Source of the DNA: Escherichia phage vB_Ec-M-J
DNA: 64,000 nt
Sequence record: OQ718158.1
Strand: one strand, 5' to 3'
In this document: in pieces, positions 1,384-21,095 of the stretch
How the letters are laid out: each line of letters begins with the position of its first letter
How positions within the stretch are numbered: the first letter of the stretch is position 1
Notes under the pieces: generated by a model
Told to the model about the DNA's origin: nothing
The model's input: only the letters and a program-made list of their open reading frames with translations
The model's database searches: none
Position numbers and translations under genes: made by a program

Positions 1384-1676
1384 TACCTAAAAACAAAATA
1401 ATTGAAAATAATTTAACGCGTTTAAACGGCCCGTAAAGCCCTGGAATGATTGGAATGGTGCAAATGTATAGCTTAGGTGTATTAATGCGTTAGAATGCGT
1501 CTGAGGCCGTTTTACGGGGTATAGGGATGATTTGGTGGATTGATTCAGTACTGAATGATAGTACTACTATATAGAAAGATAGTTCCCCTGGATGGTTGCA
1601 GTACTGAATGATAGTACTGAATAATAGTTCCCCTATATAGAAAGAAAACTATTTTAAAAGTATTTGTAGAAAGTAC

Positions 1677-1734
1677 TTGCAAACTAAGTTTAACGGCGTA
1701 TAATGTTTTACATCGAGAGCGGGAACACTTCCCG
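1677..1734 (+). promoter_or_regulatory. early promoter + 5' stem-loop
   Basis: AAAGTACTTGCAA-16-TATAAT-GTTTTACATC then hairpin GCGGGAAcacTTCCCGC. Confidence 0.65.
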
Positions 1735-1759
1735 CTACATATTACGAGAGATTAAAACG

Positions 1760-2122
1760 ATGGCGACTCAAATCACTAAAATTATTGCTAACCTGGTTAA
1801 CTTTCGCGACGAGATGAAAGATCTTCCGGCAGAAACGGTAAAAATTCACATTTCAGCTTATCGGGAACTTATTGCAATGTTACCGCTTAAGCGTGAACAA
1901 TACGCCGCGACCGTGATGCTTGATGCGATGATCCATAAGATGATCGCCAGTGATTTAACGATGGTTTATCAGTATATGGGCGAAAATTTCGCGGTGTATA
2001 GTAAACCAGTACCAGGAATGGAAAGTACAGAAGTATTACACGGTTTAAATTTAAAACAAGATGCATGGGATAATATGCCTCGTTTCCTGGTATGGGCTGA
2101 CAGTGGCAAGATTTACGAATAA
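1760..2122 (+). CDS. hypothetical early protein (120 aa)
   Basis: ORF in track frame; start moved to ATG after RBS GAGAG; track start 1703 lies in promoter -10. Confidence 0.65.
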   Translation: MATQITKIIANLVNFRDEMKDLPAETVKIHISAYRELIAMLPLKREQYAATVMLDAMIHKMIASDLTMVYQYMGENFAVYSKPVPGMESTEVLHGLNLKQDAWDNMPRFLVWADSGKIYE

Positions 2123-2136
2123 GTTTTAAAAAGTAC

Positions 2137-2196
2137 TTGCAAACTAAGTTTAAAAGCGTATAATGTTTTACATCAGGTGGGGAATAGTTCCCCACT
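2137..2196 (+). promoter_or_regulatory. early promoter + 5' stem-loop
   Basis: TTGCAA-16-TATAAT-GTTTTACATC; hairpin GTGGGGAAtagTTCCCCAC. Confidence 0.65.
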
Positions 2197-2216
2197 ATAA
2201 TTAAGAGATTAATTTC

Positions 2217-2450
2217 ATGAGTACTATTTTAACTGTTTCTCAATCCGTTGCACTGACTGACCTATTAAACGCTTTAAGCCGTTGCACTGAGGTTGGCTTG
2301 TTTGATGTGGTAGACGTTGCACCGGACGTTATTAATCATTTTTGTGATGCGATGGAAGAATGTAAGGAAGATGATAGCCGTATGATGGCGGTCGCCTTTG
2401 AGGAAGTACAACCAGGTGAGATCAAAGGTTTACCAGTACTGAAAAAATAG
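2217..2450 (+). CDS. hypothetical early protein (77 aa)
   Basis: track ORF; own promoter and RBS. Confidence 0.65.
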   Translation: MSTILTVSQSVALTDLLNALSRCTEVGLFDVVDVAPDVINHFCDAMEECKEDDSRMMAVAFEEVQPGEIKGLPVLKK

Positions 2451-2453
2451 TAC

Positions 2454-2512
2454 TTGCAAACTAAGTTTAAAAGCGTATAATACTTTCTATCAGGTGGGGA
2501 ATAGTTCCCCAC
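2454..2512 (+). promoter_or_regulatory. early promoter + 5' stem-loop
   Basis: TTGCAA-16-TATAAT; hairpin GGTGGGGAAtagTTCCCCACT. Confidence 0.65.
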
Positions 2513-2532
2513 TATATAAGAGGATTTAAAAA

Positions 2533-2772
2533 ATGGCTAAATCAAAAATGTTCTTAGGTCACAAAAACAAAACTCATTGGAATGTAAGCCTTTGGATTAA
2601 TAACGATGAGTCATTGTACCGGTTGGCCCAGGACTTTATTAACGATAGCACTAATCGCAATGATGCGGCCCGTCATATGATGTTATTTTTAGAACAGACT
2701 GGACAAGATAAAACACCGGACGGATTCAAATATAGCACTACTGCGATCCGTGCGGCGATGGTTGGAATGTAA
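2533..2772 (+). CDS. hypothetical early protein; paralog of 4636..4875
   Basis: track ORF; shares HKNKTHWNVSLWINN...TPDGFKYSTTAIRAAMVGM with 4636 gene. Confidence 0.7.
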   Translation: MAKSKMFLGHKNKTHWNVSLWINNDESLYRLAQDFINDSTNRNDAARHMMLFLEQTGQDKTPDGFKYSTTAIRAAMVGM

Positions 2773-2798
2773 TAGAATAGAATTTATTTAAAGTACTA

Positions 2799-2823
2799 TT
2801 GCACGGGGATAGTACTTTATAAT
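2799..2823 (+). promoter_or_regulatory. degenerate promoter (short spacer)
   Basis: TTGCAC-13-TATAAT; the homologous element at 15302 has an intact 17-bp spacer. Confidence 0.3.
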
Positions 2824-2860
2824 AGTGTTTTATTCATACACCAACGATAAGGGCAACAGC

Positions 2861-3127
2861 ATGAATATTAAGTATTTTGCGACGCGTGAACAAGCTCGGA
2901 TCGCCGCACGGCAGGACGGGGCAACGTTTAAAGATATGGGCGTACAATCGGAACGTGGTAAACGTTGGGCCATTGTAAAGCGTAGTACCGCCAGATCATT
3001 ACAGTACTGGTTAGCGGCCTTAAAAAGTCCCGATAGTGTATCGCGTCGAGTGGTAGAAATAAAGCTCGACCGAAAGGGCAACCGCGTGACTGTGTACCGT
3101 ACTAAAAAGATTGCAGTACTTGAATAA
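2861..3127 (+). CDS. hypothetical early protein; paralog of 15375..15770
   Basis: start moved to ATG after RBS AAGGG; shares KYFATREQARIAAR...RKGNRVTVY with 15375 gene. Confidence 0.6.
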   Translation: MNIKYFATREQARIAARQDGATFKDMGVQSERGKRWAIVKRSTARSLQYWLAALKSPDSVSRRVVEIKLDRKGNRVTVYRTKKIAVLE

Positions 3128-3134
3128 AAAGTAC

Positions 3135-3193
3135 TTGCAAACTATGTTTAATGGCGTATAATGTTTTACATCGAGAGCGGGAACACTTCCCGC
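3135..3193 (+). promoter_or_regulatory. early promoter + 5' stem-loop
   Basis: TTGCAA-16-TATAAT-GTTTTACATC; hairpin GCGGGAAcacTTCCCGC. Confidence 0.65.
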
Positions 3194-3214
3194 CTATAAC
3201 CTGGAGTAATAAAA

Positions 3215-3445
3215 ATGACTAATATGTATATGACTGAAGTTAAAACCGTAAAAGATACTACCACGAATAAAACTACTTACTTACAGCGGATCTGCGGTGT
3301 ATGGCAACGTATCAGCAAATCAAAGTACTTTAAATTAACATCATATGCAAACCGTTCGGATTCATTCAGTACTGAAATAAAAGGTAATAAAGTACACCAA
3401 TACGGCACTTATTATTATTATAGCCTGGACGCGATTGCAGTCTAA
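3215..3445 (+). CDS. hypothetical early protein (76 aa)
   Basis: track ORF; promoter + RBS GGAG. Confidence 0.6.
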   Translation: MTNMYMTEVKTVKDTTTNKTTYLQRICGVWQRISKSKYFKLTSYANRSDSFSTEIKGNKVHQYGTYYYYSLDAIAV

Positions 3446-3475
3446 GCAGTTTACAAATCTTTACAATTGCCGGTA

Positions 3476-3504
3476 TTGACTTATTTTGTCAGTACTGGCA
3501 TAAT
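3476..3504 (+). promoter_or_regulatory. sigma70-like promoter upstream of conserved box
   Basis: TTGACT-17-CATAAT. Confidence 0.5.
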
Positions 3505-3536
3505 GTATTCATTGGCAGATAAGCCGTAGCCCATAG

Positions 3537-3565
3537 GGTGCGGGAGTGTATCTATAGAAAAATTA
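3537..3565 (+). promoter_or_regulatory. conserved ~29-bp box (TAGCCCAyAGGGTGC..GTGTATCTAT)
   Basis: one of about 10 copies in the window, always 25-50 bp downstream of a promoter. Confidence 0.5.
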
Positions 3566-3567
3566 GT

Positions 3568-3600
3568 TTAGTACAGTTACAATTGTGCACCCGGTGGGTT
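3568..3600 (-). promoter_or_regulatory. inverted copy of conserved box
   Basis: reverse complement of GTGCACCCGGTGGGTTAGC matches the box. Confidence 0.45.
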
Positions 3601-3619
3601 AGCTGTTGTCATGGGGTAT

Positions 3620-3648
3620 ATTATGCCAGTACTTGATAATGCTGTCAA
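3620..3648 (-). promoter_or_regulatory. leftward promoter convergent with 3476 promoter
   Basis: minus strand TTGACA-17-CATAAT. Confidence 0.45.
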
Positions 3649-3693
3649 TACTTTTTTAATATTCAGTACTGAAAACTATTTTTAAAAAGTACT

Positions 3694-3720
3694 TGCAAAC
3701 TATGTTTAAAGGCGTATAAT
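3694..3720 (+). promoter_or_regulatory. early promoter (no immediate hairpin; long leader)
   Basis: TTGCAA-15-TATAAT-GTTTTACATC. Confidence 0.6.
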
Positions 3721-3810
3721 GTTTTACATCAGGACGGGGAACGAAATAAGTAACTTCCCGTTAAGTAGCCCAGGAGTAAGGCACACGAAAAACTCCCCTG
3801 ATAAAATAGT
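3721..3810 (+). promoter_or_regulatory. structured ~90-nt leader, duplicated at 14175..14262
   Basis: CAGGACGGGGAACGAAA.AAGTAAC..CCCGTTAAGTAG.CCAGGAGTAAG...AAAAACTCCCCTGATAAAATAG nearly identical in both copies. Confidence 0.5.
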
Positions 3811-3838
3811 TTGACAATTGTTTTTAAAAGCGTATAAT
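3811..3838 (+). promoter_or_regulatory. second (tandem) promoter before 3871 gene
   Basis: TTGACA-16-TATAAT. Confidence 0.5.
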
Positions 3839-3870
3839 ACTTACATCAACTACTGAATGAGGGTTACAAA

Positions 3871-4545
3871 ATGAAAACTATCACTACTACTACTTTCGTT
3901 ATGGATTTTTCTGAATTGAATGAGGGTTGCAAAGCGAAAACTGTCACTAATACTACTTTCGTTATGGATTTTTCTGAATTGAACGCAGAACAAAAAACGT
4001 CAGCTATCGAACTGGTTCGGGAACGTGAAAAAAACTTAAACGATGATTATTTTTCTGAAAGTGAAATTGAATACTATAAAGAAACAGTACTACCGGAATA
4101 TGGCATTAATGACGCTGAAATACAATTCAGTGGTTTTTGGTCCCAGGGTGACGGTGCATCAATCAGTACTGACCACGTTGACGCAGTGAAGTTTTTACGC
4201 AAGGTAAGAGCATTAACTAAATATCGCTCAATCCGTCACTTGCTGAATGAAGATGATTTGGCGATGAGTGTAAAGCGTTCTCACTCCCACTACTCGCATG
4301 AGAATACTGTAAGCGGGTACATTGAATCGGCTTACACTGATTTAACCGCAAAACAAGAAACGTTAGTTAATGAGCTTGAGGAACTACTCACTGAAACTAT
4401 TCGTGAATTATCCCGCAAGTTGTACCGTGATTTAGAGAATGCATATGAGGATCAATTCACTACTGAAAACATTACGGCACTGATTGAGGGTAACGAATAT
4501 CAATTCAATGTTATTAATGGCGTAGTAGAATCAATCGAATATTAA
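3871..4545 (+). CDS. hypothetical protein (224 aa) with N-terminal tandem duplication
   Basis: track ORF; TTTFVMDFSELN(E/A) repeated twice near N-terminus. Confidence 0.7.
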   Translation: MKTITTTTFVMDFSELNEGCKAKTVTNTTFVMDFSELNAEQKTSAIELVREREKNLNDDYFSESEIEYYKETVLPEYGINDAEIQFSGFWSQGDGASISTDHVDAVKFLRKVRALTKYRSIRHLLNEDDLAMSVKRSHSHYSHENTVSGYIESAYTDLTAKQETLVNELEELLTETIRELSRKLYRDLENAYEDQFTTENITALIEGNEYQFNVINGVVESIEY

Positions 4546-4557
4546 TTTAAAAAGTAC

Positions 4558-4619
4558 TTGCAAACTAAGTTTAAAGGCGTATAATACTTTATATCGAGGC
4601 GGGGAGTGGTTCCCCGCTC
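4558..4619 (+). promoter_or_regulatory. early promoter + 5' stem-loop
   Basis: TTGCAA-16-TATAAT; hairpin GAGGCGGGGAgtggTTCCCCGCTC. Confidence 0.65.
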
Positions 4620-4635
4620 AAACGAGGATTAAAAA

Positions 4636-4875
4636 ATGGCTAGTACTAAAACTTACAACGGGCACAAAAACAAAACTCATTGGAATGTTTCCTTATGGAT
4701 TAATAACGGTGAGTCATTGTATCGGCTTGCTCAAAGTTGCATCGCACAAAGTAGAACTAAAGATATTGCTGCGGAATGTATGTACCGCAGATTAAAAGCC
4801 AACGGTACTACTACAACGCCGGACGGATTCAAGTATAGCACTACGGCGATCCGTGCTGCAATGGTTGGAATGTAA
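4636..4875 (+). CDS. hypothetical early protein; paralog of 2533..2772
   Basis: track ORF; conserved N- and C-terminal blocks with 2533 gene. Confidence 0.7.
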   Translation: MASTKTYNGHKNKTHWNVSLWINNGESLYRLAQSCIAQSRTKDIAAECMYRRLKANGTTTTPDGFKYSTTAIRAAMVGM

Positions 4876-4895
4876 TATTCAGTACTGTAACAATG

Positions 4896-4920
4896 GCGGG
4901 GAATGGTTCCCGCCTTTATT
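4896..4920 (+). terminator. hairpin + T-rich tail (terminator or 5' stabiliser)
   Basis: GGCGGGGAAtggTTCCCGCC then TTTATT. Confidence 0.45.
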
Positions 4921-4933
4921 GAGGGTTTATCTA

Positions 4934-5194
4934 ATGAGTAAAGTAATTAGCTATACAGTACTAAGCAAGTCATTATCTATTAGCCAGTGCACCGATGGTT
5001 ATTGGCTATTTGATGAAACGCGTGGAATGAATTTAGCTATGCGTGCAAAAACTGCTGAGGCGGCGTATCTTGAGGCACTGGAATACTACCAGGAACGTTT
5101 AACGGAAGTAGAAGAAGATTATAAAAGCCTCAAAGCGAAAGTAGATCATTTCGTCGGTCAATTCATCGAGGAAGACGACGACAAACAATATTGA
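4934..5194 (+). CDS. hypothetical early protein (86 aa)
   Basis: start moved to ATG after RBS GAGGG; track start 4853 runs through the hairpin. Confidence 0.55.
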   Translation: MSKVISYTVLSKSLSISQCTDGYWLFDETRGMNLAMRAKTAEAAYLEALEYYQERLTEVEEDYKSLKAKVDHFVGQFIEEDDDKQY

Positions 5195-5203
5195 AAAAGT
5201 ACT

Positions 5204-5261
5204 TGCAATTAGTTTTAAGTACTGTATAATGGTTTACATCAAAGGGAGAAATGGTTCTCCC
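5204..5261 (+). promoter_or_regulatory. early promoter + 5' stem-loop
   Basis: TTGCAA-15-TATAAT; hairpin GGGAGAAatggTTCTCCC. Confidence 0.65.
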
Positions 5262-5280
5262 TGGTAATGAGGAAAATAAA

Positions 5281-5502
5281 ATGGCTAATATCACTACTCT
5301 TTCCCAACTGGAAGCACTGGTTAAATCTATGCGGGAACATGCCGACAAAATCGGCGTACAAGATCCAGCCGTTTGCTTCTGCGACGAATTGAATGATGAT
5401 ACCCTGGTAATAGCAGAAGTCCAGGACGTTTCTAACTATTCCTCGCGTTACACTGGCGGCGTAGCAAATAAAGGTGACTTCTGTTTATACCTTACAAAAT
5501 AA
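5281..5502 (+). CDS. hypothetical early protein (73 aa)
   Basis: start moved to ATG after RBS GAGG; track start 5251 lies in hairpin. Confidence 0.6.
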   Translation: MANITTLSQLEALVKSMREHADKIGVQDPAVCFCDELNDDTLVIAEVQDVSNYSSRYTGGVANKGDFCLYLTK

Positions 5503-5505
5503 CAA

Positions 5506-5537
5506 CGCGGGGAGATAATAACTCCCCGTTACTTTTT
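5506..5537 (+). terminator. rho-independent terminator candidate
   Basis: CGGGGAGataataaCTCCCCG then TTACTTTTT. Confidence 0.5.
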
Positions 5538-5608
5538 CAGTACTGAATCATTTAATAGACGGATCTCGGCACCCGGTGGGTTAGTGACTGTTTCGTCTTG
5601 ATGTAGTA

Positions 5609-5637
5609 ATTATGCCAGTACTGGATGCACTTGTCAA
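5609..5637 (-). promoter_or_regulatory. leftward promoter reading into inverted box copy
   Basis: minus strand TTGACA-17-CATAAT; GCACCCGGTGGGTTAG downstream. Confidence 0.4.
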
Positions 5638-5670
5638 CAATTATTTTTCAAATACTTTTTATTAAAATAC

Positions 5671-5725
5671 TTGCAATTAGTTTTTAAACGCGTATAATGT
5701 TTTGCATAGGGGGAGCGGTTCCCCT
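5671..5725 (+). promoter_or_regulatory. early promoter + 5' stem-loop
   Basis: TTGCAA-16-TATAAT; hairpin GGGGGAGcggTTCCCC. Confidence 0.6.
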
Positions 5726-5745
5726 GGTAACTAAGGAATAAGAAA

Positions 5746-5982
5746 ATGGTCGAACAAATCAAATCAACGTCTTCGAATGTAACGGGAACGGTAGCACACT
5801 TTACTAGTGATGAATCGCGGGGCGTTCCCTATTGTGCTGTACATGTAAACACTGAGGGTAACTACTGGTTTACGGTTTACGGATCATATTCATTTGGACG
5901 GCCAGGGCATCAAAAAATTCTGGATAAAGTACAACCAACGGGTAAAAATATCACTGCCGAAATGTTTTATAAAAAATCATAA
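5746..5982 (+). CDS. hypothetical early protein (78 aa)
   Basis: track ORF; RBS AAGGAA. Confidence 0.6.
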   Translation: MVEQIKSTSSNVTGTVAHFTSDESRGVPYCAVHVNTEGNYWFTVYGSYSFGRPGHQKILDKVQPTGKNITAEMFYKKS

Positions 5983-5987
5983 AGTAC

Positions 5988-6046
5988 TTGCAATTAGTTT
6001 TTAGTACTGTATAATATTTTACATCGCAAGGGGGAGCGGTTCCCCC
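5988..6046 (+). promoter_or_regulatory. early promoter + 5' stem-loop
   Basis: TTGCAA-16-TATAAT; hairpin GGGGGAGcggTTCCCCC. Confidence 0.6.
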
Positions 6047-6066
6047 TGGTAACTAAGGATAATCAA

Positions 6067-6366
6067 ATGAAAATTGCAATCATCGCCCTGGCTTTATCTG
6101 TTTCCTCTTTCGCTGTTAATGCGTCATTAGATGTAAGTAGTGAAAAATTCATTCAGTGCACTGTTGCAATGACCGATGAAAGAACTGGCGAGATTGTATT
6201 AAAGGATTTAGAGATCCAGCCGGAAGCATTTAAAAACGGGCCGTTCCATGAAGAAGACGAAAAAGGTAGCACGACAATTTATTACGATGCCAGTACTAAA
6301 CGCGGTTCGGTCACTGTAATGGATACTGAGAAAGTAACTCATACTGGCGTTATTAATTGCCGTTGA
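6067..6366 (+). CDS. secreted/periplasmic small protein (signal peptide)
   Basis: N-terminus MKIAIIALALSVSSFAVNA-S looks like a Sec signal peptide. Confidence 0.65.
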   Translation: MKIAIIALALSVSSFAVNASLDVSSEKFIQCTVAMTDERTGEIVLKDLEIQPEAFKNGPFHEEDEKGSTTIYYDASTKRGSVTVMDTEKVTHTGVINCR

Positions 6367-6387
6367 TAGATACTACGGGGTAACATC

Positions 6388-6618
6388 ATGACTAAGCGAA
6401 TTGTTTTACTTAACGAAAGCAGTACTACACAACTACTTAACGCCGTGCATTATGATATTGAAACGAGCGTTAATCTTATCAGTACTGTCGTACTGTTGGA
6501 CACTGGAAAGGTCGCCAATGATAAAGCGATTGCAGGTATATTAACGGATCTTGAGCCTGGTAGCAGTGCACCCATAACGTTAAATGGTAAAGTGTTTAAT
6601 ATTTTACTCACTGATTAA
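6388..6618 (+). CDS. hypothetical protein (76 aa)
   Basis: track ORF directly after 6067 gene; RBS GGGG. Confidence 0.55.
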   Translation: MTKRIVLLNESSTTQLLNAVHYDIETSVNLISTVVLLDTGKVANDKAIAGILTDLEPGSSAPITLNGKVFNILLTD

Positions 6619-6624
6619 GTACAT

Positions 6625-6650
6625 AGCCCACCTGGTGGGCTTTTTTTGTT
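6625..6650 (+). terminator. rho-independent terminator
   Basis: AGCCCACctgGTGGGCT then TTTTTTTG. Confidence 0.7.
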
Positions 6651-6701
6651 TTTGTAGTATCGTAGTACTGAGATACTTTGAAAATAGTTTTAAAAAAGTA
6701 G

Positions 6702-6729
6702 TTGACATTACCGCAGAAAAGCGTAGAAT
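6702..6729 (+). promoter_or_regulatory. sigma70-like promoter with long leader
   Basis: TTGACA-16-TAGAAT. Confidence 0.5.
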
Positions 6730-6852
6730 GTATTACATCAAGACGGGGAGCACTAAGTAGACCGCCAGTAAGTCGAACGAAAAACTGGACACGTCGAGAA
6801 AACTTTGATACACTAATAAACGTAAACTAAACTTTAATTGAGGATTTATAAA

Positions 6853-7335
6853 ATGGCTAATGTAAAATCATTCATCAAAGCACTGGTAGCAAATGAAACT
6901 AACGTCGCGGCTGAGATCCTGGCTGAACTGGATAACGATACCATGAAAGCGGTACGCAATAATTTTAACATCGCGTACAGTACTGCGAAAGAACTACAAG
7001 CAAATAAAGCGGCAGAAATTGAAGCGGCAAAGGCTGCCCGTGAAGCAGAACTACAAGCAACAATCGAAAGTATTCAGGCGGCAGTAGTTGGATTGGATCT
7101 GGAAGTAGTTACAGAGATGGCACAAAAAGCCCTGGCGGTTAAGTATGGGGAAGACAAGCCAGAAGTAAAAGCCAAAAAATGGATTCAGGAACGCGTAGCG
7201 GTAGTACTGGATAATGGGGAAGAATATCTGATTCCGGTGCGTGGTAACTGTATTGCGGTAGTACTGGACGCGATTAACGCCAGCGGTATGACTCGCGAGG
7301 AATGGATCGAATCTCATCGCAAAGTTGAAGCATAA
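6853..7335 (+). CDS. hypothetical protein, Ala/Glu/Lys-rich helical N-terminus (160 aa)
   Basis: track ORF; start moved from TTG to ATG after RBS GAGG. Confidence 0.65.
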   Translation: MANVKSFIKALVANETNVAAEILAELDNDTMKAVRNNFNIAYSTAKELQANKAAEIEAAKAAREAELQATIESIQAAVVGLDLEVVTEMAQKALAVKYGEDKPEVKAKKWIQERVAVVLDNGEEYLIPVRGNCIAVVLDAINASGMTREEWIESHRKVEA

Positions 7336-7356
7336 CAATTAAAGTACTGAATCACT

Positions 7357-7386
7357 AGCCCACTGTATAAGTGGGCTTTTTTGTGT
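7357..7386 (+). terminator. rho-independent terminator
   Basis: AGCCCACtgtataaGTGGGCT then TTTTTTG. Confidence 0.7.
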
Positions 7387-7393
7387 TTATCGT

Positions 7394-15279: not shown

Positions 15280-15301
15280 TAGAATCCATTTAAAGTACTA
15301 T

Positions 15302-15330
15302 TTGACATTGCCCAGATAGTACTTTATAAT
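15302..15330 (+). promoter_or_regulatory. sigma70-like promoter
   Basis: TTGACA-17-TATAAT. Confidence 0.55.
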
Positions 15331-15374
15331 AGACTCTAACTTGTAGTACTAACTCAACTAATAGGATGTATACC

Positions 15375-15770
15375 ATGATTACTAAATTCTACGCTACCCG
15401 TGAAGCTGCCCGTATTGTTGCACGCGAGGAAGGAGCAGCATTTAAAGACATGGGCAAAGATGCACCGAAAGGTCAACGCTGGGCCGTACAGTTCAAAGAA
15501 ATCTCTGATATTGTGAATTCACCTGAGCCAGTACTGACAGCAGCAGAACTAAAACGAGCGGATATGCTGGCGGCAATACTTGACGCACAAGATGAGTTTA
15601 TCGCTGATTCTGATATCAAAGTACAGGTAAACCACACCGCATGGACTCACGCGGATCACCTGGCAAACCTTAAGCGTCCAAGTGAACTGATTCGCAACCA
15701 GAAAGAGATCCGACACGACCGTAAGGGTAATCGTGTAACAGTATACAGTAAACGCCGCCAGGTTATCTAA
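15375..15770 (+). CDS. hypothetical early protein; paralog of 2861..3127
   Basis: start moved to ATG aligning with paralog (MITKFYATRE); track start 15366 is also possible. Confidence 0.6.
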   Translation: MITKFYATREAARIVAREEGAAFKDMGKDAPKGQRWAVQFKEISDIVNSPEPVLTAAELKRADMLAAILDAQDEFIADSDIKVQVNHTAWTHADHLANLKRPSELIRNQKEIRHDRKGNRVTVYSKRRQVI

Positions 15771-15800
15771 TAACTTGCAGTACTAACAACACGGCGGGAT

Positions 15801-15826
15801 CAGTTCCCGCCTTTTTTATAGGACAA
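15801..15826 (+). terminator. rho-independent terminator
   Basis: GGCGGGAtcagtTCCCGCC then TTTTTTAT. Confidence 0.7.
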
Positions 15827-15831
15827 ACAAC

Positions 15832-16086
15832 ATGATTAAGGTTCAACTATCAAACGATAATGTATTACGGGTACACTATAAAGCACCTCAGAGAATCATC
15901 ACAAAGGCCGTACAGCTTGCTAATGAGTTTATTAATGGTAACCTATTACCTAGGAAGTTAAGCAACGGGAAACTGCGTGTAATCGACGTGGACACTAACA
16001 ACAGGATAGTAATCGAGAACACAGGAAAGATAAACCTTTATGAGCATCAACAATACAATAAGAAAATAAAACTAATATCACGTTGA
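15832..16086 (+). CDS. hypothetical protein (84 aa)
   Basis: track ORF; RBS AGGA. Confidence 0.55.
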   Translation: MIKVQLSNDNVLRVHYKAPQRIITKAVQLANEFINGNLLPRKLSNGKLRVIDVDTNNRIVIENTGKINLYEHQQYNKKIKLISR

Positions 16087-16112
16087 CAGTACTCAATTGT
16101 TTTAGTACTATG
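16084..16112 (+). promoter_or_regulatory. promoter (leader duplicated at 16359)
   Basis: TTGACA-17-TACTAT; GTACTCAA.TGTTTTAGTACTAT conserved in both copies. Confidence 0.45.
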
Positions 16113-16139
16113 TACACATACCAACACGGGAGAAACAAA

Positions 16140-16358
16140 ATGAAATTATCTAAAATCGAAAAGAAAACTATTGATGAAGCAGTTAAGCACGGTTATACCT
16201 TTCGTAATGATTCACATTTTACCAATTTTCAACAAGGGTATCGTACTATTAAAAAACTAATTGACAAAGGTTTATTAGTTGAAGTCAATAACGGTAACGG
16301 TATCGAGTATCAACCAACACAGGACGCATTTTATTTTAAGAAATATAATATTATCTAA
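16140..16358 (+). CDS. hypothetical protein (72 aa)
   Basis: start moved to ATG after RBS GGGAGAAA; track start 16083 is the TTG of the -35. Confidence 0.6.
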   Translation: MKLSKIEKKTIDEAVKHGYTFRNDSHFTNFQQGYRTIKKLIDKGLLVEVNNGNGIEYQPTQDAFYFKKYNII

Positions 16359-16387
16359 TTGACAGTACTCAAATGTTTTAGTACTAT
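16359..16387 (+). promoter_or_regulatory. promoter, duplicate of 16084
   Basis: TTGACA-17-TACTAT. Confidence 0.45.
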
Positions 16388-16415
16388 ATGTACATACCAA
16401 CACGGGGGAAACAAA

Positions 16416-16658
16416 ATGATTACTTTAGAAAAACGTATCAAAGAAACTACATCGCTGGTGGAACTGTTAACAGTACTCAAATGTAAAACAACACCATTCA
16501 GCACGCCGGACTTTATTAATATGGTTGATGTTAATGGTCGCTATCGTATCACGGTCGAACAAGGAGCGGCGAAAGTATTCAGTACTAAAAACACTAAGGA
16601 AGTGATCCACGCCGTTAATGTTAAAAAAGTAGTTGCCATTGATAGTAAAGTACTGTAA
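16416..16658 (+). CDS. hypothetical protein (80 aa)
   Basis: start moved to ATG after RBS GGGGGAAA. Confidence 0.6.
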   Translation: MITLEKRIKETTSLVELLTVLKCKTTPFSTPDFINMVDVNGRYRITVEQGAAKVFSTKNTKEVIHAVNVKKVVAIDSKVL

Positions 16659-16689
16659 TATAGTTTCATTAACTCAAGGAGAACATGCA

Positions 16690-17274
16690 ATGCGTAATTA
16701 TACTAAATTCATCCGTACACTGTCAGAAATGGAAACCAACAAAGAGATCCTTTCAGCTTGTCGGTTAGCTGGACTGGAGATCATCGGTGCTGGTTCTTCC
16801 CGTATAGTATTCGCTTTAAATGATCGGTTAGTGATTAAGGTCGCGAATTGTGATGCGGGTGTAGAACAAAATGAAACTGAATGTAAGGTATGGAATTTTT
16901 TAGACTATGACCGCCCTCAGTTGAAACAGTACTTTGCAAAGGTGCATATGCATTTATGCGATCCTGATAATATGTTTATCGTTATGGATCGGTTGAGTAC
17001 TGCAAGTAAAGGCAGTGTGAAGCACGTTAACGCGTGCAATGAATTAAAGTACAATATTAAACGTAATGCAATTGAACGCCAGCACCGCTTTGCTGATGCA
17101 CTACAACACGTCGATGATACATTATCAACACTAACGATAAGAGATATCAGAAAACAGAATATCGGCCAGGATCGTAATGGCCTTATTAAAGTACTTGATT
17201 ACGGTTTAACCTGCAATATCTGGAATCAGTACTATAAAAAGCGTGATGTGGCAGCAAGTAAGGTAACACGATAA
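16690..17274 (+). CDS. putative protein kinase-like protein (Hanks-type motifs)
   Basis: IIGAGSSRIV (G-x-G loop), VIKVA (Lys), IRDIRKQN (catalytic loop), VLDYGL (DFG-like) in canonical order and spacing; RBS AAGGAG. Confidence 0.5.
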   Translation: MRNYTKFIRTLSEMETNKEILSACRLAGLEIIGAGSSRIVFALNDRLVIKVANCDAGVEQNETECKVWNFLDYDRPQLKQYFAKVHMHLCDPDNMFIVMDRLSTASKGSVKHVNACNELKYNIKRNAIERQHRFADALQHVDDTLSTLTIRDIRKQNIGQDRNGLIKVLDYGLTCNIWNQYYKKRDVAASKVTR

Positions 17275-17280
17275 AAAAGA

Positions 17281-17370
17281 TTAAAAAAGGGATTGACTCC
17301 GGTCAGTCCCTTTGCTATTATATATTCATTGAGAGATAACTCACTGACCCATAGGGTGCGGAAGTGTATC
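17281..17370 (+). promoter_or_regulatory. composite element: hairpin/promoter + conserved box
   Basis: AAAAAAGGGATTGACtccgGTCAGTCCC; TTGACT-17-TATTAT; TGACCCATAGGGTGCGGAAGTGTATCTAT. Confidence 0.55.
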
Positions 17371-17416
17371 TATTATATAAGTATTCAGTACTGAAAACTA
17401 TTTTAAAAAAAAGTAC

Positions 17417-17476
17417 TTGCATTGTACTTAGAATCAAGTATAATGTTTTATATCGAGAGGGGGAAATGGTTCTCCC
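17417..17476 (+). promoter_or_regulatory. early promoter + 5' stem-loop
   Basis: TTGCAT-16-TATAAT; hairpin GGGGGAAatggTTCTCCC. Confidence 0.6.
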
Positions 17477-17498
17477 TGGTATATTAAGGAATAAAATC

Positions 17499-17720
17499 AT
17501 GACTACAATGACTTGCATTTACGCTTCCAATCTTCTGAATGATGCGGCCTTTAATGTTGATTCAGAATATCAATGTTATCGGGATGAAAATAAAAAAGTT
17601 TTTGTAGTTGATAATAATGGTTTCCATATTGAATTACAATCCGGCTTCACTGGCGTTGATGGTAAATCAGTATGGGGCGTACAGGATGATAAAGGTACAT
17701 ATCATTTTAAACGTAATTAA
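17499..17720 (+). CDS. hypothetical early protein (73 aa)
   Basis: start moved to ATG after RBS AAGGAATAA. Confidence 0.6.
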   Translation: MTTMTCIYASNLLNDAAFNVDSEYQCYRDENKKVFVVDNNGFHIELQSGFTGVDGKSVWGVQDDKGTYHFKRN

Positions 17721-17723
17721 GTA

Positions 17724-17782
17724 TTGACAAAGTATCTTAGTACTGTATAATAGTTTACATCAAGGGGAGAATAGTTCTCCCC
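17724..17782 (+). promoter_or_regulatory. early promoter + 5' stem-loop
   Basis: TTGACA-16-TATAAT; hairpin GGGGAGAAtagTTCTCCCC. Confidence 0.65.
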
Positions 17783-17803
17783 GATACTAAAAGGAATAAA
17801 ATC

Positions 17804-18211
17804 ATGACTACTACTAATCAAGCTCGGTCCATCGCCAACGATAAAAATCATGCTGAAATGGTCGCTGGTTACATTGAAGCTATGCAATTCAGTACTGTAC
17901 ACAATGAGAACGGCGAATACCTGGAAGATTATGAATTATCAGAGCAAGCCCATCAAGCGGCAGTGATTGCATGTTCACGTTTCCTTGCTGTACATGGTGA
18001 AGATATGGAAACAGTACAAAAACACCATAATCCTGATTATACTTATAGTCATGCGGGTCATGATCTCTTTCTTACTCGCGAAGGTCACGGCACTGGTTTT
18101 TGGGATCGTGATATCGGTCACTATGATGATATATTCACTAAGTACTGCGAAGAAATCAACGTTTGCGATCCCTATGTAGGCGATGATAATCTAATCTATA
18201 TGGGCGAATAA
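17804..18211 (+). CDS. hypothetical early protein, His-rich (135 aa)
   Basis: track ORF; RBS AAGGAATAA. Confidence 0.65.
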   Translation: MTTTNQARSIANDKNHAEMVAGYIEAMQFSTVHNENGEYLEDYELSEQAHQAAVIACSRFLAVHGEDMETVQKHHNPDYTYSHAGHDLFLTREGHGTGFWDRDIGHYDDIFTKYCEEINVCDPYVGDDNLIYMGE

Positions 18212-18217
18212 AAGTAT

Positions 18218-18276
18218 TTGACAAAGTATATCAGTACTGTATAATAGTTTACATCAAGGGGAGAATAGTTCTCCCC
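18218..18276 (+). promoter_or_regulatory. early promoter + 5' stem-loop
   Basis: TTGACA-16-TATAAT; hairpin GGGGAGAAtagTTCTCCCC. Confidence 0.65.
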
Positions 18277-18298
18277 ACCAATAAAAGGAAACAAAATT

Positions 18299-18571
18299 AT
18301 GTCCAGCTACTCCGCTACTATGATCATTAAAGATATGAACGGTAATCCTACTTCTGCTGGTGGATCATTTGGAAACATTAATTTAGATGGTCGGTTATCC
18401 ATGCAATCAGCCATCGATGCAGCGAAAGAAGTTTTTAAGAATGAATGTACTGTAAGTAAGCTGGATTATATGGGATTCGCTATCGAAAAAACTAATCGTT
18501 TTGTGAACTACAAAAATCCACTGATGATCGATACTAACCTGAAAGCAAACGAAGTGGGGTACTTATTATGA
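18299..18571 (+). CDS. hypothetical early protein (90 aa)
   Basis: track ORF; RBS AAGGAAAC. Confidence 0.65.
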   Translation: MSSYSATMIIKDMNGNPTSAGGSFGNINLDGRLSMQSAIDAAKEVFKNECTVSKLDYMGFAIEKTNRFVNYKNPLMIDTNLKANEVGYLL

Positions 18572-18759
18572 CAGTAGAAGAAGTTAAAAAAGTACTGGCA
18601 GTACTACGCTATCATAATCATTGCAAGGTGAAGAATGATCCTGATTATCTCGATTCATCCCTGGAAGAGGATACACTACAAGCAATAAGCCATATGCAAA
18701 AAATGCTTAAGCGTATGACCGAAAAGAATAGGCCGGACTATATCGGAAATAAAATTTAA
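18568..18759 (+). CDS. hypothetical protein (63 aa)
   Basis: track ORF; ATGA overlap with upstream gene. Confidence 0.55.
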   Translation: MTVEEVKKVLAVLRYHNHCKVKNDPDYLDSSLEEDTLQAISHMQKMLKRMTEKNRPDYIGNKI

Positions 18760-18766
18760 AAAGTAC

Positions 18767-18826
18767 TTGCATTGTAGTTAGATTAACGTATAATGTTTTA
18801 TATCGAGAGGGGGAAATGGTTTCCCC
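18767..18826 (+). promoter_or_regulatory. early promoter + 5' stem-loop
   Basis: TTGCAT-16-TATAAT; hairpin GAGGGGGAAatggTTTCCCCTC. Confidence 0.6.
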
Positions 18827-18846
18827 TCAAGTCCAGGAGATACACC

Positions 18847-19110
18847 ATGAACACTATCGAAATCACTATCAATGCACACGTATACGACAACGTAGTACTG
18901 CAAACTACTATGACCGCTAATGATACCAGTACTTTGCGGAATACTGTTATTAGTGCCGTATGTGCTGCAATCGGTGATGTCGCCCTGGAAAATGCAGAAC
19001 ACATCAACAACGGTTTCACTATGTGCAAACGTGATAACGCAAAACATATCATCGTAGAAGGTTACGGCGGTGTAGAATTTAATGTTTATATGAAAAAAGT
19101 ACTTGCATAA
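18847..19110 (+). CDS. hypothetical early protein (87 aa)
   Basis: start moved to ATG after RBS CAGGAGA. Confidence 0.6.
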   Translation: MNTIEITINAHVYDNVVLQTTMTANDTSTLRNTVISAVCAAIGDVALENAEHINNGFTMCKRDNAKHIIVEGYGGVEFNVYMKKVLA

Positions 19111-19159
19111 TAACTAAAACAAAGTATAATGTTTTGCATAGGGGGAGATATCCTCCCCC
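19104..19159 (+). promoter_or_regulatory. early promoter + 5' stem-loop
   Basis: TTGCAT-15-TATAAT; hairpin GGGGGAGAtatcCTCCCCC. Confidence 0.6.
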
Positions 19160-19177
19160 ACTAAAAGGAGTAATAAA

Positions 19178-19402
19178 ATGGCTAACTTTGATGAACTGAT
19201 GCGGGAAGTAGCTAACCTGGCAGAAGAGAAGAAATCATTCGATTCTATCTATAACACCGCTCACCGTGATTCAGTACTGGCATGTAACCAGGATCAAAAA
19301 GATGAACTAATCGCCACCTATCATGAAGCATGGAAGTACTACCGACAATGGGAGAAAGAAGAAAGTGAGTCTACCATCGAAGGTATCAATAATCTAATCT
19401 AA
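19178..19402 (+). CDS. hypothetical early protein (74 aa)
   Basis: track ORF; RBS AAGGAG. Confidence 0.65.
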   Translation: MANFDELMREVANLAEEKKSFDSIYNTAHRDSVLACNQDQKDELIATYHEAWKYYRQWEKEESESTIEGINNLI

Positions 19403-19422
19403 AAGTTTTATTTCAGTACTAT

Positions 19423-19450
19423 TGACATAGCTTGATAGTACTGATGTAAT
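19423..19450 (+). promoter_or_regulatory. class-B early promoter
   Basis: TTGACA-16-TGTAAT. Confidence 0.5.
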
Positions 19451-19478
19451 AACTTTACTAACTACAAGGGGAAACATA

Positions 19479-19736
19479 ATGGATCAATTCACACAATATC
19501 GGGTAAATCCTCAATCTATGGCCTACGTAGAAGACCATAAAACGTTACCAGTACTGCAACCAGTTAAAGGCCGTATCTATCGTGGCCTTGCCTGGGATAC
19601 GGCCCAGGATGGATATAAAACCGTCGCCGTGGGGATGTATTGCGGGAATGGTGAATGGTTTGATCCTAACAATCCGATTGCACTTGACAGTACTGAAAAA
19701 ATGAAATGGGCCGACTACATCGAAGATATTTCATAA
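19479..19736 (+). CDS. hypothetical early protein (85 aa)
   Basis: track ORF; RBS AAGGGGAAA. Confidence 0.6.
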   Translation: MDQFTQYRVNPQSMAYVEDHKTLPVLQPVKGRIYRGLAWDTAQDGYKTVAVGMYCGNGEWFDPNNPIALDSTEKMKWADYIEDIS

Positions 19737-19743
19737 AAACTAT

Positions 19744-19806
19744 TTGACAGTACTAACCAGTAATGTATAATGTTTTACATAGAGCGGGGGAATAGTTCTC
19801 CCGCCA
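19744..19806 (+). promoter_or_regulatory. early promoter + 5' stem-loop
   Basis: TTGACA-16-TATAAT-GTTTTACAT; hairpin GAGCGGGGGAAtagTTCTCCCGCC. Confidence 0.6.
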
Positions 19807-19826
19807 ATAGTTTGGAGTTAAACATT

Positions 19827-20027
19827 ATGTCTATCGCTATCGCCCTGGTTGAAGTACTGAAAGAAGCTAAAGCCAACCTTATCGATGTACAGATTAAGGA
19901 ATTGCAAAACGGCTTAATCGGCTGTACTTGTACCGCTGGTGGAGCGGCAGACTATCGAGAACACGAATCACTCGAATCACTGGTTCGGTATCTTACCATG
20001 ATCGTTGATGATTGGAGAATCATCTAA
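19827..20027 (+). CDS. hypothetical early protein (66 aa)
   Basis: start moved to ATG after RBS GGAG. Confidence 0.6.
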   Translation: MSIAIALVEVLKEAKANLIDVQIKELQNGLIGCTCTAGGAADYREHESLESLVRYLTMIVDDWRII

Positions 20028-20036
20028 CAAAAAAGA

Positions 20037-20126
20037 ATAAAAAAGGGATTGACTCCGGTCAGTCCCTTTGCTATTATATACGCATAGACAAAAACTAGCC
20101 CACAGGGTGCATAAGTGTATCCAAAA
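20037..20126 (+). promoter_or_regulatory. composite element: hairpin/promoter + conserved box
   Basis: AAAAAAGGGATTGACtccgGTCAGTCCC; TTGACT-17-TATTAT; TAGCCCACAGGGTGCATAAGTGTATCC. Confidence 0.55.
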
Positions 20127-20189
20127 TATATAGTTAATAACGGTGAGTAACTATCTGCTGGTGGAGTGAAAACTATTAATAAAAAAGTA

Positions 20190-20218
20190 TTGACAAAGTA
20201 TATCAGTACTGCAATAAT
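20190..20218 (+). promoter_or_regulatory. sigma70-like promoter
   Basis: TTGACA-16-CAATAAT. Confidence 0.45.
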
Positions 20219-20271
20219 GTATCTCGTAGGGCGGCAATGGTGCGACGGCCCACAAAGTTAGGAGCTTCAAA

Positions 20272-20604
20272 ATGACTACTTCAATCGCTATCGTTAAAGC
20301 TTTCATCCGTACTAATGTTTCCTCTGTATTCATCGACGGCCTCGACCGTAACGTAGAATACTCAATCATTATCGCACAAACGGCAAACGGTTCTCGGTAC
20401 ATCCTGAATGATAGTGAAGCAAATCACTACTACTTCACTAAAGCCACTGGCTTTAAACGCATCGATGCTGATGTAGTATACGCTAAGATGAATAAGCTGG
20501 TAGATAAGATTAACGCTAAAGGTACTATAGATTTACAGTACTGGACCGAAACCGATCCAGAATATGGATCTCACCGCTACCTGAATCCAGGTATTAAAAT
20601 GTAA
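20272..20604 (+). CDS. hypothetical protein (110 aa)
   Basis: track ORF; RBS TTAGGAG. Confidence 0.65.
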   Translation: MTTSIAIVKAFIRTNVSSVFIDGLDRNVEYSIIIAQTANGSRYILNDSEANHYYFTKATGFKRIDADVVYAKMNKLVDKINAKGTIDLQYWTETDPEYGSHRYLNPGIKM

Positions 20605-20611
20605 AAAGTAC

Positions 20612-20672
20612 TTGCATAGTACTTAGATTCATGTATAATGTTTTACATAGAGAGGGGGAAATGGTTCTCCCT
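20612..20672 (+). promoter_or_regulatory. early promoter + 5' stem-loop
   Basis: TTGCAT-16-TATAAT-GTTTTACAT; hairpin GAGGGGGAAatggTTCTCCCTC. Confidence 0.6.
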
Positions 20673-20693
20673 CCTAAATTAAGGAGTTTTATC

Positions 20694-21095
20694 ATGACCT
20701 TCTCAATCACTTCCTTCGCTGACGTTTTAGTACTGGCTCGGACTTTTGGTAAAGATGCACTGGAGTACGCTGTAAGTAATGGCACTATCCAACCGGAACA
20801 GTGCCGCATCATTGGAAACTGCAAACGTTGGGCGGTATCCAATACTATTGCACTGGAAAACTTCAACGATGGCAACAATGAATATTCTGTTGATGCAGTA
20901 TTCGAAGCCGTAGACCTGGGCGGTATCTATAACACTAACCTGAATGATGTGCGTATCGTTCGCACGGGGTTCGGTGCTTATGATGTATCTATCCGTGAAG
21001 CTATGGACAATGGATACATTAGCAAGGACTTACTTGCTCACATCATGCAGCTATGGACGGAACGTAACGAAGCACGCACTATCTTAGGGCTGTAA
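20694..21095 (+). CDS. hypothetical protein (133 aa)
   Basis: start moved to ATG after RBS AAGGAG. Confidence 0.65.
   Translation: MTFSITSFADVLVLARTFGKDALEYAVSNGTIQPEQCRIIGNCKRWAVSNTIALENFNDGNNEYSVDAVFEAVDLGGIYNTNLNDVRIVRTGFGAYDVSIREAMDNGYISKDLLAHIMQLWTERNEARTILGL

Follow-up and report, generated by a model that had tools for sequence, protein, structure and literature searches.

The early region of Escherichia phage vB_Ec-M-J (sequence record OQ718158.1) raises the question of why nearly the same promoter, often followed by a G-rich hairpin, stands again and again before small genes on one strand. The window analysed here is a 64,000-nucleotide (nt) stretch of this phage, and the repeated units, hereafter cassettes, lie in its first 21 kb, where a previous inspection by a model (the sequence-only reading) had described about 40 promoter/hairpin/gene cassettes. 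Our answer, held with slightly better than even confidence, is that they form a modular early region of the promoter-early stem-loop (PeSL) kind, in which sigma70 promoters act in parallel, a 5' hairpin serves as stabiliser or insulator, and homology between cassettes drives gene exchange.

Consensus scans and a regular-expression search anchored on the -10 hexamer located about 47 sigma70-type promoters on the plus strand, from 1677 to 20639, for about 54 small genes, and many of them matched the consensus at 10-12 of 12 positions. Promoters with at least 10 matching positions numbered 39 in the first 20 kb, as against about one to four in most of the 4-kb bins further on. A promoter lay directly upstream of about 39 of the roughly 54 plus-strand genes (some gene starts in that count being heuristic), which bears out the claim that most early genes possess their own near-consensus sigma70 promoter. 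The region had also been delimited correctly, with the first cassette at 1677 and the last gene start at 20694, and the 47-mer quoted as a nearly fixed promoter sequence gave five matches at no more than three mismatches versus none in 100 shuffles. Three main promoter forms were distinguished, namely AAAAAGTAC-TTGCA(A/T/C)-16-TATAAT; TTGACA-16-TATAAT with AGTACTG abutting the -10; and a type C form, ATTATCACAGTACTA-TTGACA-17-CATAAT, present in three exact copies and two variants. The last corresponds to the second promoter type, ATTATCACAGTACTATTGACA-17-CATAAT, that had been counted five times and was recovered exactly at 8095, 8389 and 11231 and as variants at 11502 and 19422.

In the cassettes, an A-rich upstream tract (AAAAA) is followed by an AGTACT box, the -35 (TTGCAA or TTGACA), a 16-nt spacer and TATAAT; downstream come A-T at 8-9 nt past the -10, the hairpin (in 26 of about 47 units), a Shine-Dalgarno sequence and the start codon. 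This A and T (A14 and T15 past the -10, positions 8-9 after it) were invariant in 89 distinct cassette sequences, and the invariant A, 8 nt past the -10, is the likely transcription start. Intergenic spacers measure mostly 56-99 nt. The open reading frames (ORFs) encode 47-224 amino acids, mostly 47-135, the earlier figure having been 50-130. Most are of unknown function, as are nearly all of their PHROGs families; above the Pfam cutoff, a DksA/TraR-type zinc finger (12349-12606, E = 2e-11), possibly a binder of the RNA polymerase secondary channel, and a GNAT acetyltransferase (12670-13026, E = 4e-9) were detected. One of three sub-cutoff Pfam matches was a weak protein kinase match (16690-17274, E = 0.0035, below the Pfam cutoff).

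A G-rich hairpin of 7-9 bp, for example GGGGAGAA-loop-TTCTCCCC, was present in 26 cassettes, or 29 when three long-loop variants (3693, 14147 and 6702) are included, and 21 other promoters carry no G-rich hairpin. The pattern of about 40 cassettes is thus real for the promoters, of which there are more, but overstated for the hairpin. The hairpin starts 8-14 nt past the -10, with a mode of 12 nt (16 of 26), where a distance within about 10 nt had been proposed, and 17-23 nt separate its end from the start codon. Folding of the first 40 nt, which had been suggested as a check, yielded the hairpin as the minimum free energy (MFE) structure in 26 of 26 cases, at -11.0 to -15.9 kcal/mol and with a mean z of -2.2 against dinucleotide shuffles, so that it is thermodynamically favoured as had been anticipated; the first 40 nt behind the hairpin-less promoters gave about 0 to -2 kcal/mol. 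Of the GC-rich plus-strand hairpins, 51 fell within the first 24 kb and 12 within the other 40 kb of the window. A hairpin at 18-33 nt upstream was also seen for five genes without a promoter of their own; two of these hairpins (9145-9164, 18 nt 5' of gene 9183-9455, and 21120-21139, 24 nt 5' of gene 21164-21373, both plus strand) are unrelated in sequence.

For comparative analysis, a covariance model was seeded with six equal-length cassettes, which replaced a plain MAFFT alignment of the 26 leaders that was out of structural register. The model gave 181 matches in the window and eight loci of other phages, 178 of them on the coding strand, and within the window none past 20676. Among the 89 distinct sequences, with 46 stem variants and 30 loop variants (mostly 3-7 nt), 98.3% of the stem cells formed standard pairs and 7 of the 8 stem pairs showed changes on both sides. 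Compensatory cells numbered 75 as compared with 19.6 ± 3.4 in shuffles, and the pairing signal collapsed once the partners were slid by 1-3 columns as a control. Non-Watson-Crick stem cells comprised 39 G·U and 6 A·C. The covariation, the marked surplus of G·U over A·C and the variable loops support the view that selection maintains the hairpin as a strand-specific structure of the transcript. The same data bear on the idea that the inverted repeat acts as DNA, as a cruciform or as a recombinase site that targets cassette recombination, with the RNA fold being incidental. This idea draws on indel junctions located at the hairpin (7574/7607, 5707, 9720) and on the PeSL authors, who speculated that the GGGG...CCCC element is a recombination target and mapped one crossover in the loop (PMC2839356). 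The G·U bias and the orientation of 178 of 181 matches with transcription, however, point to the transcribed strand rather than the duplex, since a palindrome in duplex DNA would not be expected to favour G·U. Junctions moreover occur throughout the cassette, and recombination also involves the type C cassettes, which have no hairpin, so that a role as DNA is very unlikely.

That the hairpin has no function and merely travels along with copied or gene-converted cassettes would fit the many near-identical copies and the clear recombination from cassette to cassette. It is hardly credible in view of the compensatory changes that retain pairing at 7 of 8 stem positions, the unrelated hairpins at the same distance of 18-24 nt from the start codons (9145, 21120), and the retention of the structure in the divergent clade of phages Munch and fENko-Kae01, where most genes no longer align.

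The closest known kind are the PeSLs of the T4-type phages RB49/phi1, T4/PST and KVP40/nt-1 (Arbiol et al. 2010, PMC2839356; Comeau et al. 2014, PMC4122927), an organisation that the sequence-only reading had not recognised. Each of these repeated cassettes unites an early promoter of the sigma70 type with an AT-rich tract and a GGGG...CCCC stem-loop; PeSLs lie in hyperplastic small-gene regions, where they mediate modular shuffling (PMC2839356, PMC4122927). The present units share with them the form of ~100-bp repeated intergenic elements amid small genes of unknown function; the sequence of AT-rich tract, near-consensus sigma70 early promoter, GGGG...CCCC stem-loop, Shine-Dalgarno sequence and ATG; the location between the upstream stop codon and the downstream Shine-Dalgarno/ATG; and the way in which close relatives differ at the cassettes by inserted, deleted or replaced genes. 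They differ in having a single stem-loop position, 8-14 nt past the -10 and inside the predicted transcript, whereas the stem-loop of the RB49/phi1 PeSLs can stand at any of five positions, in most cases between the -35 and -10 or over them. They also differ in the missing U tract after the stem, in their location in a direct terminal repeat, in their positional AGTACT boxes, and in belonging to a family common to Asteriusvirus, the Munch-like jumbo clade, Vequintavirinae and Phapecoctavirus. A distant BLAST search with one cassette against 50,697 phage records returned phages of the Asteriusvirus, Munch-like, Vequintavirinae and Phapecoctavirus types only and no T4-type phage, hence the cassettes are not of the same sequence family as the T4-type PeSLs; they are best regarded as a candidate 5'-untranslated-region (UTR) variant of the PeSL type, the organisation itself being already known from T4-type phages.

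This kinship suggests that the hairpins might be attenuators or terminators, as proposed for PeSLs, damping read-through so that each gene's own promoter dominates. The stem-loops and the kind of cassette are the same, and one of the PeSL stem-loops reduced the expression of lacZ to about the same extent as rrnB T1 did (PMC2839356). In the window, two hairpins of the same family that lack a promoter precede T runs and are terminator-like, one at 4895-4914 followed by TTTATTGA (19 nt 5' of gene 4934-5194) and one at 15793-15811 followed by TTTTTTAT (20 nt 5' of gene 15832-16086), both on the plus strand. The 26 promoter-proximal hairpins, in contrast, lie 3' of their own predicted start, so that their own transcript would be terminated too; the terminator scan called none of the 26 as an intrinsic terminator, and the 8 nt 3' of the stem hold a mean of 1.7 T versus 5.6 at the true terminators of the region (6625, 7357, 15793 etc.). 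The canonical examples are plus-strand elements at 6625-6641 (AGCCCACCTGGTGGGCT and a T run), which closes a transcription unit, and at 7357-7377 (AGCCCAC...GTGGGCT and a T run). The missing U tract and the location 3' of the predicted start make a canonical terminator role unlikely; nor would a simple terminator need to stand at fixed distances from the -10 and the ATG, and we regard attenuation as improbable.

Comparably doubtful is a role of the hairpin as a signal recognised by a protein of the phage or the host, be it in nut- or put-like antitermination, as the target of a shut-off nuclease or in translational regulation, an option that the sequence-only reading had raised as regulator binding. 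What speaks for it is the G-rich 5' arm (GGGGAGAA, GAGGGGAA), which is strongly conserved in a promoter-proximal position across Asteriusvirus, Munch/fENko-Kae01 and Vequintavirinae and includes a GGAG motif; T4 RegB cleaves early mRNAs at GGAG. The option is weakened by the 30 loops of differing sequence and length and the 46 covarying stem variants, which offer no fixed loop for a boxB-type contact, and no boxA-like conserved flank was found beyond ACATC. A lambda-type nut site (boxA plus boxB) and an HK022 put RNA were rejected as candidates on the grounds of the loop variation, the single stem of 7-9 bp and the lack of an Rfam match; put RNAs consist of two stems, unlike a single 8-bp hairpin. 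The Rfam scan of positions 1-24,000 at E ≤ 1 gave two sub-threshold chance matches only (Trp leader and S15 leader) and no known RNA family.

Being thermodynamically favoured, selected and strand-specific, the hairpin fits a role in the transcript as stabiliser or insulator, which we therefore continue to favour. Stabilising 5' stem-loops are known from the 5' UTR of E. coli ompA and from the phi10 leader of phage T7 (GGGAGACCACAACGGTTTCCC) and have been proposed to slow 5'-end-dependent decay; the assignment rests on this known behaviour of E. coli 5' stem-loops. Like these, the cassettes carry a stable G-rich hairpin near the mRNA 5' end and upstream of the ribosome site; unlike them, the hairpin is predicted at 2-7 nt from the 5' end and not at it, and host RNA polymerase would transcribe the genes. 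On this model, the host sigma70 RNA polymerase would fire the ~47 promoters in parallel upon DNA entry, so that each small host-takeover gene would be expressed whatever its position. The hairpin would fold within the first ~30 nt of the nascent RNA and most likely serve the 5' UTR as stabiliser and insulator, impeding RNase E and RppH in their 5'-end-dependent attack or scanning and keeping the downstream ribosome site free for any gene plugged in. In read-through transcripts from upstream cassettes, it could also form a barrier to 3' exonucleases or a processing boundary. The promoter and structure parts of the model are well supported; it is the stabiliser role, the transcription starts and the early timing that we infer.

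Several points weigh against the model. The z-scores of single cassettes are modest (-0.9 to -3.9), and the shuffle statistics of covariation overstate independence, because the sequences were aligned to the structure of the model and are paralogues related to one another. If transcription starts at the invariant A, 1-6 (mostly 5) unpaired nt would precede the stem, while classical 5' stabilisers, as known from ompA work, tolerate only about 2-4. At least 18 predicted promoters of the same region have no hairpin at all, which implies that it is not required for early expression. When assayed with a reporter, the RB49/phi1 stem-loops acted as terminators, which is a different role (PMC2839356), and the literature searched gave no data on transcription starts, timing or half-lives for the present phage group.

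The proposed early timing derives from the genome context. Asteriusvirus jumbo coliphages (ECO103 4-12-1, WPEC5, Turkey3, G17, fEgEco12, BF17 and 121Q) matched the first 21 kb of the window with their early regions at 92-97% identity, and by this homology the source is an Asteriusvirus jumbo coliphage of the 121Q/G17/fEgEco12 type. Positions 57-20,968 of fEgEco12 are colinear with 67-21,500 of the window, and the physical ends of fEgEco12 and its direct terminal repeat (DTR) of 20,993 bp were fixed via PhageTerm and restriction digests (PMC13070987). Because of this colinearity, the window should begin at the left genome end and positions ~1-21,525 (plus strand), which contain all cassettes, should represent the left DTR, a context absent from the sequence-only reading. 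The boundary at about 21,525 is predicted from the homology to fEgEco12 and from the GC content, which amounts to 36-41% in the first 22 kb and 29-35% in most of the remaining window, with the drop after about 21.4 kb. In the distant relative PA5oct, many DTR genes were highly transcribed early according to RNA-seq (PMC7318152), which by analogy supports the assignment of the terminal repeat as a putative immediate-early region.

To relate the cassettes to genome variation, the window was compared with G17, fEgEco12, Turkey3, BF17 and 121Q, where 20 major indel or replacement events with 40 breakpoints in the window were found. Cassette intervals, covering 22.7% of the region, contained 23 of the 40 breakpoints (p = 2e-6), and in 16 of the 20 events at least one end fell inside a cassette; at some indel junctions the overlap was 77-80 nt. 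Gene 2217-2450 sits between two near-identical cassettes, and four relatives (G17, fEgEco12, Turkey3 and 121Q) have one cassette and no such unit at that site; as aligned in fEgEco12, this single cassette consists of the left flank of one copy and the right flank of the other. The same single-cassette pattern was seen in relatives for gene 8157-8369, which lies between two identical hairpin-less type C cassettes and whose unit is missing from G17 and fEgEco12. BF17 is without the acetyltransferase unit (12639-13043), the deletion extending from the -10 of one promoter to the spacer of the next, and additional gene units of relatives are inserted at 5183, 7575, 9880-9938 and 13295. Given that ~80-100 nt of each cassette are nearly identical, the cassettes could provide portable homology by which recombination would add, delete and swap gene units, also across lineages. 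The cassette-length overlaps at the junctions, together with gene-plus-cassette blocks shared with unrelated subfamilies (see below), suggest that the cassettes are better described as such portable homology, by which gene units are gained, lost and exchanged, than, as earlier, by spread through duplication. Duplication has a part in it: paralogous gene pairs in the DTR (2533-2772/4636-4875 with 76% DNA identity, 8459-8782/14956-15279 and 2861-3127/15375-15770) imply that some gene-plus-cassette units were duplicated internally.

A 101-nt cassette query found 12-17 copies per Asteriusvirus assembly with a single DTR and 26-34 copies where both repeats were assembled. Cassettes of 88-96% identity were detected in coliphages of 137-145 kb; A73, one of these and a member of the Vequintavirinae, showed 86% identity to window positions 7558-8072, comprising two cassettes and both their genes. 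Weaker cassette matches were obtained in one Phapecoctavirus. The Salmonella phage Munch, with about 11 hairpin cassettes, and the Klebsiella phage fENko-Kae01 have the same architecture in their DTR; they form a different jumbo clade with ~29% average nucleotide identity to fEgEco12 (PMC13070987). Conservation between these two phages and the window amounts to 75-88% in the cassettes, whereas most genes can no longer be aligned; the DNA similarity is largely confined to the cassettes.

The location in a long terminal repeat recalls the pre-early region of coliphage T5, in which the genes expressed first likewise occupy a long direct terminal repeat and have very strong host sigma70 promoters. 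The two are unrelated in sequence; to our knowledge, no conserved 5' hairpin follows the T5 promoters, and Asteriusvirus is not known to transfer its DNA in two steps. For the Rak2-like phages CBB, GAP32 and PA5oct, RpoD-like early promoters have been listed (PMC5259590, PMC7318152). As in the window, host-type promoters with UP-like elements stand there before short hypothetical genes in or near the terminal repeat, but a conserved 5' hairpin, cassette shuffling or AGTACT boxes are not described in these papers (PMC5259590, PMC7318152). The publications on CBB, PA5oct and rV5 give sigma70-like promoters only, and those on fEgEco12 and fENko-Kae01 are silent on promoters. In the literature searched, which extended to transcriptomes of Asteriusvirus, Vequintavirinae and Rak2-like phages, only promoter lists were found, with no account of these cassettes or of AGTACT and no paper tying PeSLs to these phage groups.

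A second signal accompanies the cassettes. The palindrome AGTACT was counted 142 times in positions 1-21,500, where 6.9 copies would be expected, and the remainder of the window contains 116 copies versus 14.2 expected; with a ~20-fold excess it is the commonest hexamer of the early region. Five further Asteriusvirus genomes and the Munch/fENko-Kae01 clade likewise show a 17-20-fold excess in their terminal repeats; the excess is absent from the Vequintavirinae phage A73. Between 1,600 and 21,500, 72 copies are non-coding and 57 coding, the latter in all three frames, and inside early genes the hexamer is 12-fold over-represented. It is present in 39 of 47 promoters at two fixed places about 20 bp apart, namely at -39 (20 times) and at -19/-20 (19 times). 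An extended -10 provided by the AGTACT at -19 was rejected, since its TG is one base out of register. SlmA, whose binding site is GTGAGTACTCAC, was rejected as an explanation because of the flanks, which favour C at -1 and G at +6 and avoid GAGTACTC. The excess may mark a new DNA-protein recognition system. Taken together with the hairpin, it allows a more speculative interpretation, to which we accord a rather low probability: AGTACT boxes and 5' hairpin would form a regulatory code that is read by phage factors and horizontally shared among unrelated large enterobacterial myovirus families. A phage-encoded or injected protein bound to AGTACT would then mark the terminal-repeat DNA and switch the early promoters together, and the hairpin would be the handle by which a phage factor decides the fate of early mRNA, that is, protection or timed destruction.

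If the favoured model of parallel promoters, stabilising hairpins and portable cassettes is true, ~50 host-takeover genes would be expressed in parallel from the terminal repeat via a standard plug of promoter, hairpin and ribosome site. It would offer a starting point for early expression in Asteriusvirus, a group on which no transcription study was found in the literature searched, and would present the cassette as a compact, context-independent expression unit kept by selection across many genes. The idea of regulatory cassettes as recombination linkers, developed for PeSLs, would reach beyond T4-type phages. The shared blocks described above are direct evidence that gene-plus-cassette units move between unrelated phage subfamilies, which bears on the spread of small phage genes of unknown function; this cross-lineage sharing and the AGTACT signal are the parts most worth following.

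The 26 hairpin cassettes, defined by promoter, hairpin and gene, all lie on the plus strand and are supported by MFE folding and the covariance model. Those with a TTGCAA-16-TATAAT promoter are located at 1677-1736 (hairpin 1718-1736, gene 1760-2122), 2137-2196 (hairpin 2176-2196, gene 2217-2450), 2454-2513 (hairpin 2493-2513, gene 2533-2772), 3135-3193 (hairpin 3177-3193, gene 3215-3445), 4558-4618 (hairpin 4598-4618, gene 4636-4875), 5203-5262 (hairpin 5243-5262, gene 5281-5502), 5671-5726 (hairpin 5707-5726, 8 nt past the -10, gene 5746-5982), 5988-6047 (hairpin 6029-6047, gene 6067-6366), 7856-7915 (hairpin 7896-7915, gene 7933-8076, the cassette with 88-96% identical copies in the 137-145 kb coliphages), 9661-9720 (hairpin 9701-9720, gene 9740-9886), 9890-9949 (hairpin 9930-9949, gene 9968-10120) and 10482-10542 (hairpin 10523-10542, gene 10562-10903). 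TTGCAC-16-TATAAT is found at 7537-7598 (hairpin 7577-7598, gene 7620-7847), where relatives have an additional gene unit at the hairpin, and at 13601-13659 (hairpin 13641-13659, gene 13680-13853). TTGCAT-16-TATAAT heads the cassettes at 13030-13088 (hairpin 13070-13088, gene 13106-13294), 17417-17477 (hairpin 17458-17477, gene 17499-17720), 18767-18828 (hairpin 18807-18828, gene 18847-19110), 19103-19159 (hairpin 19141-19159, 10 nt past the -10, gene 19178-19402) and 20612-20673 (hairpin 20652-20673, gene 20694-21095). Cassettes with TTGACA-16-TATAAT were found at 10917-10976 (hairpin 10957-10976, gene 10999-11211), 14603-14662 (hairpin 14643-14662, gene 14686-14868), 14872-14932 (hairpin 14914-14932, gene 14956-15279), 17724-17782 (hairpin 17764-17782, gene 17804-18211), 18218-18276 (hairpin 18258-18276, gene 18299-18571) and 19744-19804 (hairpin 19784-19804, gene 19827-20027), and one cassette has TGGACA-16-TATAAT (13303-13363, hairpin 13343-13363, gene 13381-13593). 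For the first gene, fEgEco12 g01 and other public records use an ATG that overlaps the -10 (TATAATG), giving 1703-2122; the cassette layout favours the ATG at 1760, in agreement with the BF17 annotation. The start of ORF 20631-21095 overlaps the -10 likewise, and 20694 is its likely start.

Also on the plus strand, a tandem-promoter unit at 3693-3838 combines a type-A promoter, a long-loop hairpin, a leader of ~85 nt and a second promoter, TTGACA-16-TATAAT, before gene 3871-4545 and is 84% identical in A73. A second copy of this long-leader unit is found at 14147-14290 (gene 14324-14599), and a TTGACA-16-TAGAAT promoter with a related leader of ~110 nt at 6702-6852 (gene 6853-7335). The consensus fold of the long leaders, with only two covarying pairs among six sequences, is not convincing as a leader structure. 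A 63-nt tandem duplication (3854-3983, 2.1 copies, 92% match) runs across the start of gene 3871-4545, with a junction at 3917-3920 that shows a 67-nt overlap in all five relatives compared.

Hairpin-less type C promoters on the plus strand are (ATTATCACAGTACTA)TTGACA-17-CATAAT at 8095-8123 (gene 8157-8369), its identical copy at 8389-8417 (gene 8459-8782) and a further one at 11231-11259 (gene 11295-11474), with the variants TTGACA-16-TATAAT at 11502-11529 (gene 11574-11717) and TTGACA-17-TGTAAT at 19422-19450 (gene 19479-19736). Other plus-strand promoters without a hairpin are TTGACA-16-TATAAT at 12613-12640, upstream of the GNAT acetyltransferase gene, TTGACA-17-TATAAT at 15302-15330 (gene 15375-15770) and TTGACA-17-TACTAT at 16083-16111 (gene 16140-16358) and 16359-16387 (gene 16416-16658). 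A plus-strand TTGACA-17-AATAAT promoter is located at 20190-20218 (gene 20272-20604).

A different module is repeated six to seven times and consists of a TTGACT-17-TATTAT promoter within a 12-bp hairpin (AAAGGGATTGACTCCGGTCAGTCCCTTT) and a tail of ~55 nt with the box AGCCCAyAGGGTGCrnrAGTGTATC. It was found at 10353-10440, 14011-14100, 17286-17375 and 20042-20130, with variants at 3468-3560, 12024-12110 and 1250-1290; most copies adjoin a type-A promoter on its upstream side, and the module is conserved in Munch and fENko-Kae01. The modules may be small RNAs, but the plus-strand folds were no better than shuffles (z +0.5 to -1.4) and had no Rfam match; the antisense stretch 3535-3612 stands out with z = -3.2. 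Strong promoters on the minus strand are few in the region and lie at 3620-3648, 5609-5637, 1356-1383 and 1014-1042, and at least three of them (3648, 5637, 1383) face GCACCCGGTGGG-type boxes complementary to AGCCCAyAGGGTGC, which suggests sense/antisense RNA pairs.

Outside the cassette array, the left-terminal 1.6 kb (1-1670) are without a convincing gene, contain tandem repeats (ATCAAAAGTA in 3.4 copies at 65-98 and repeats of 8, 24 and 32 nt at 809-917) and are rich in copies of CAGTACTGA; this segment may be terminus- or packaging-related. Right after the DTR, positions 21594 to ~29660 hold ~30 head-to-tail paralogous genes of ~70 amino acids with often overlapping stop and start codons, a common motif LGTNYQE, lower GC content and no individual promoters, in sharp contrast to the cassette layout.

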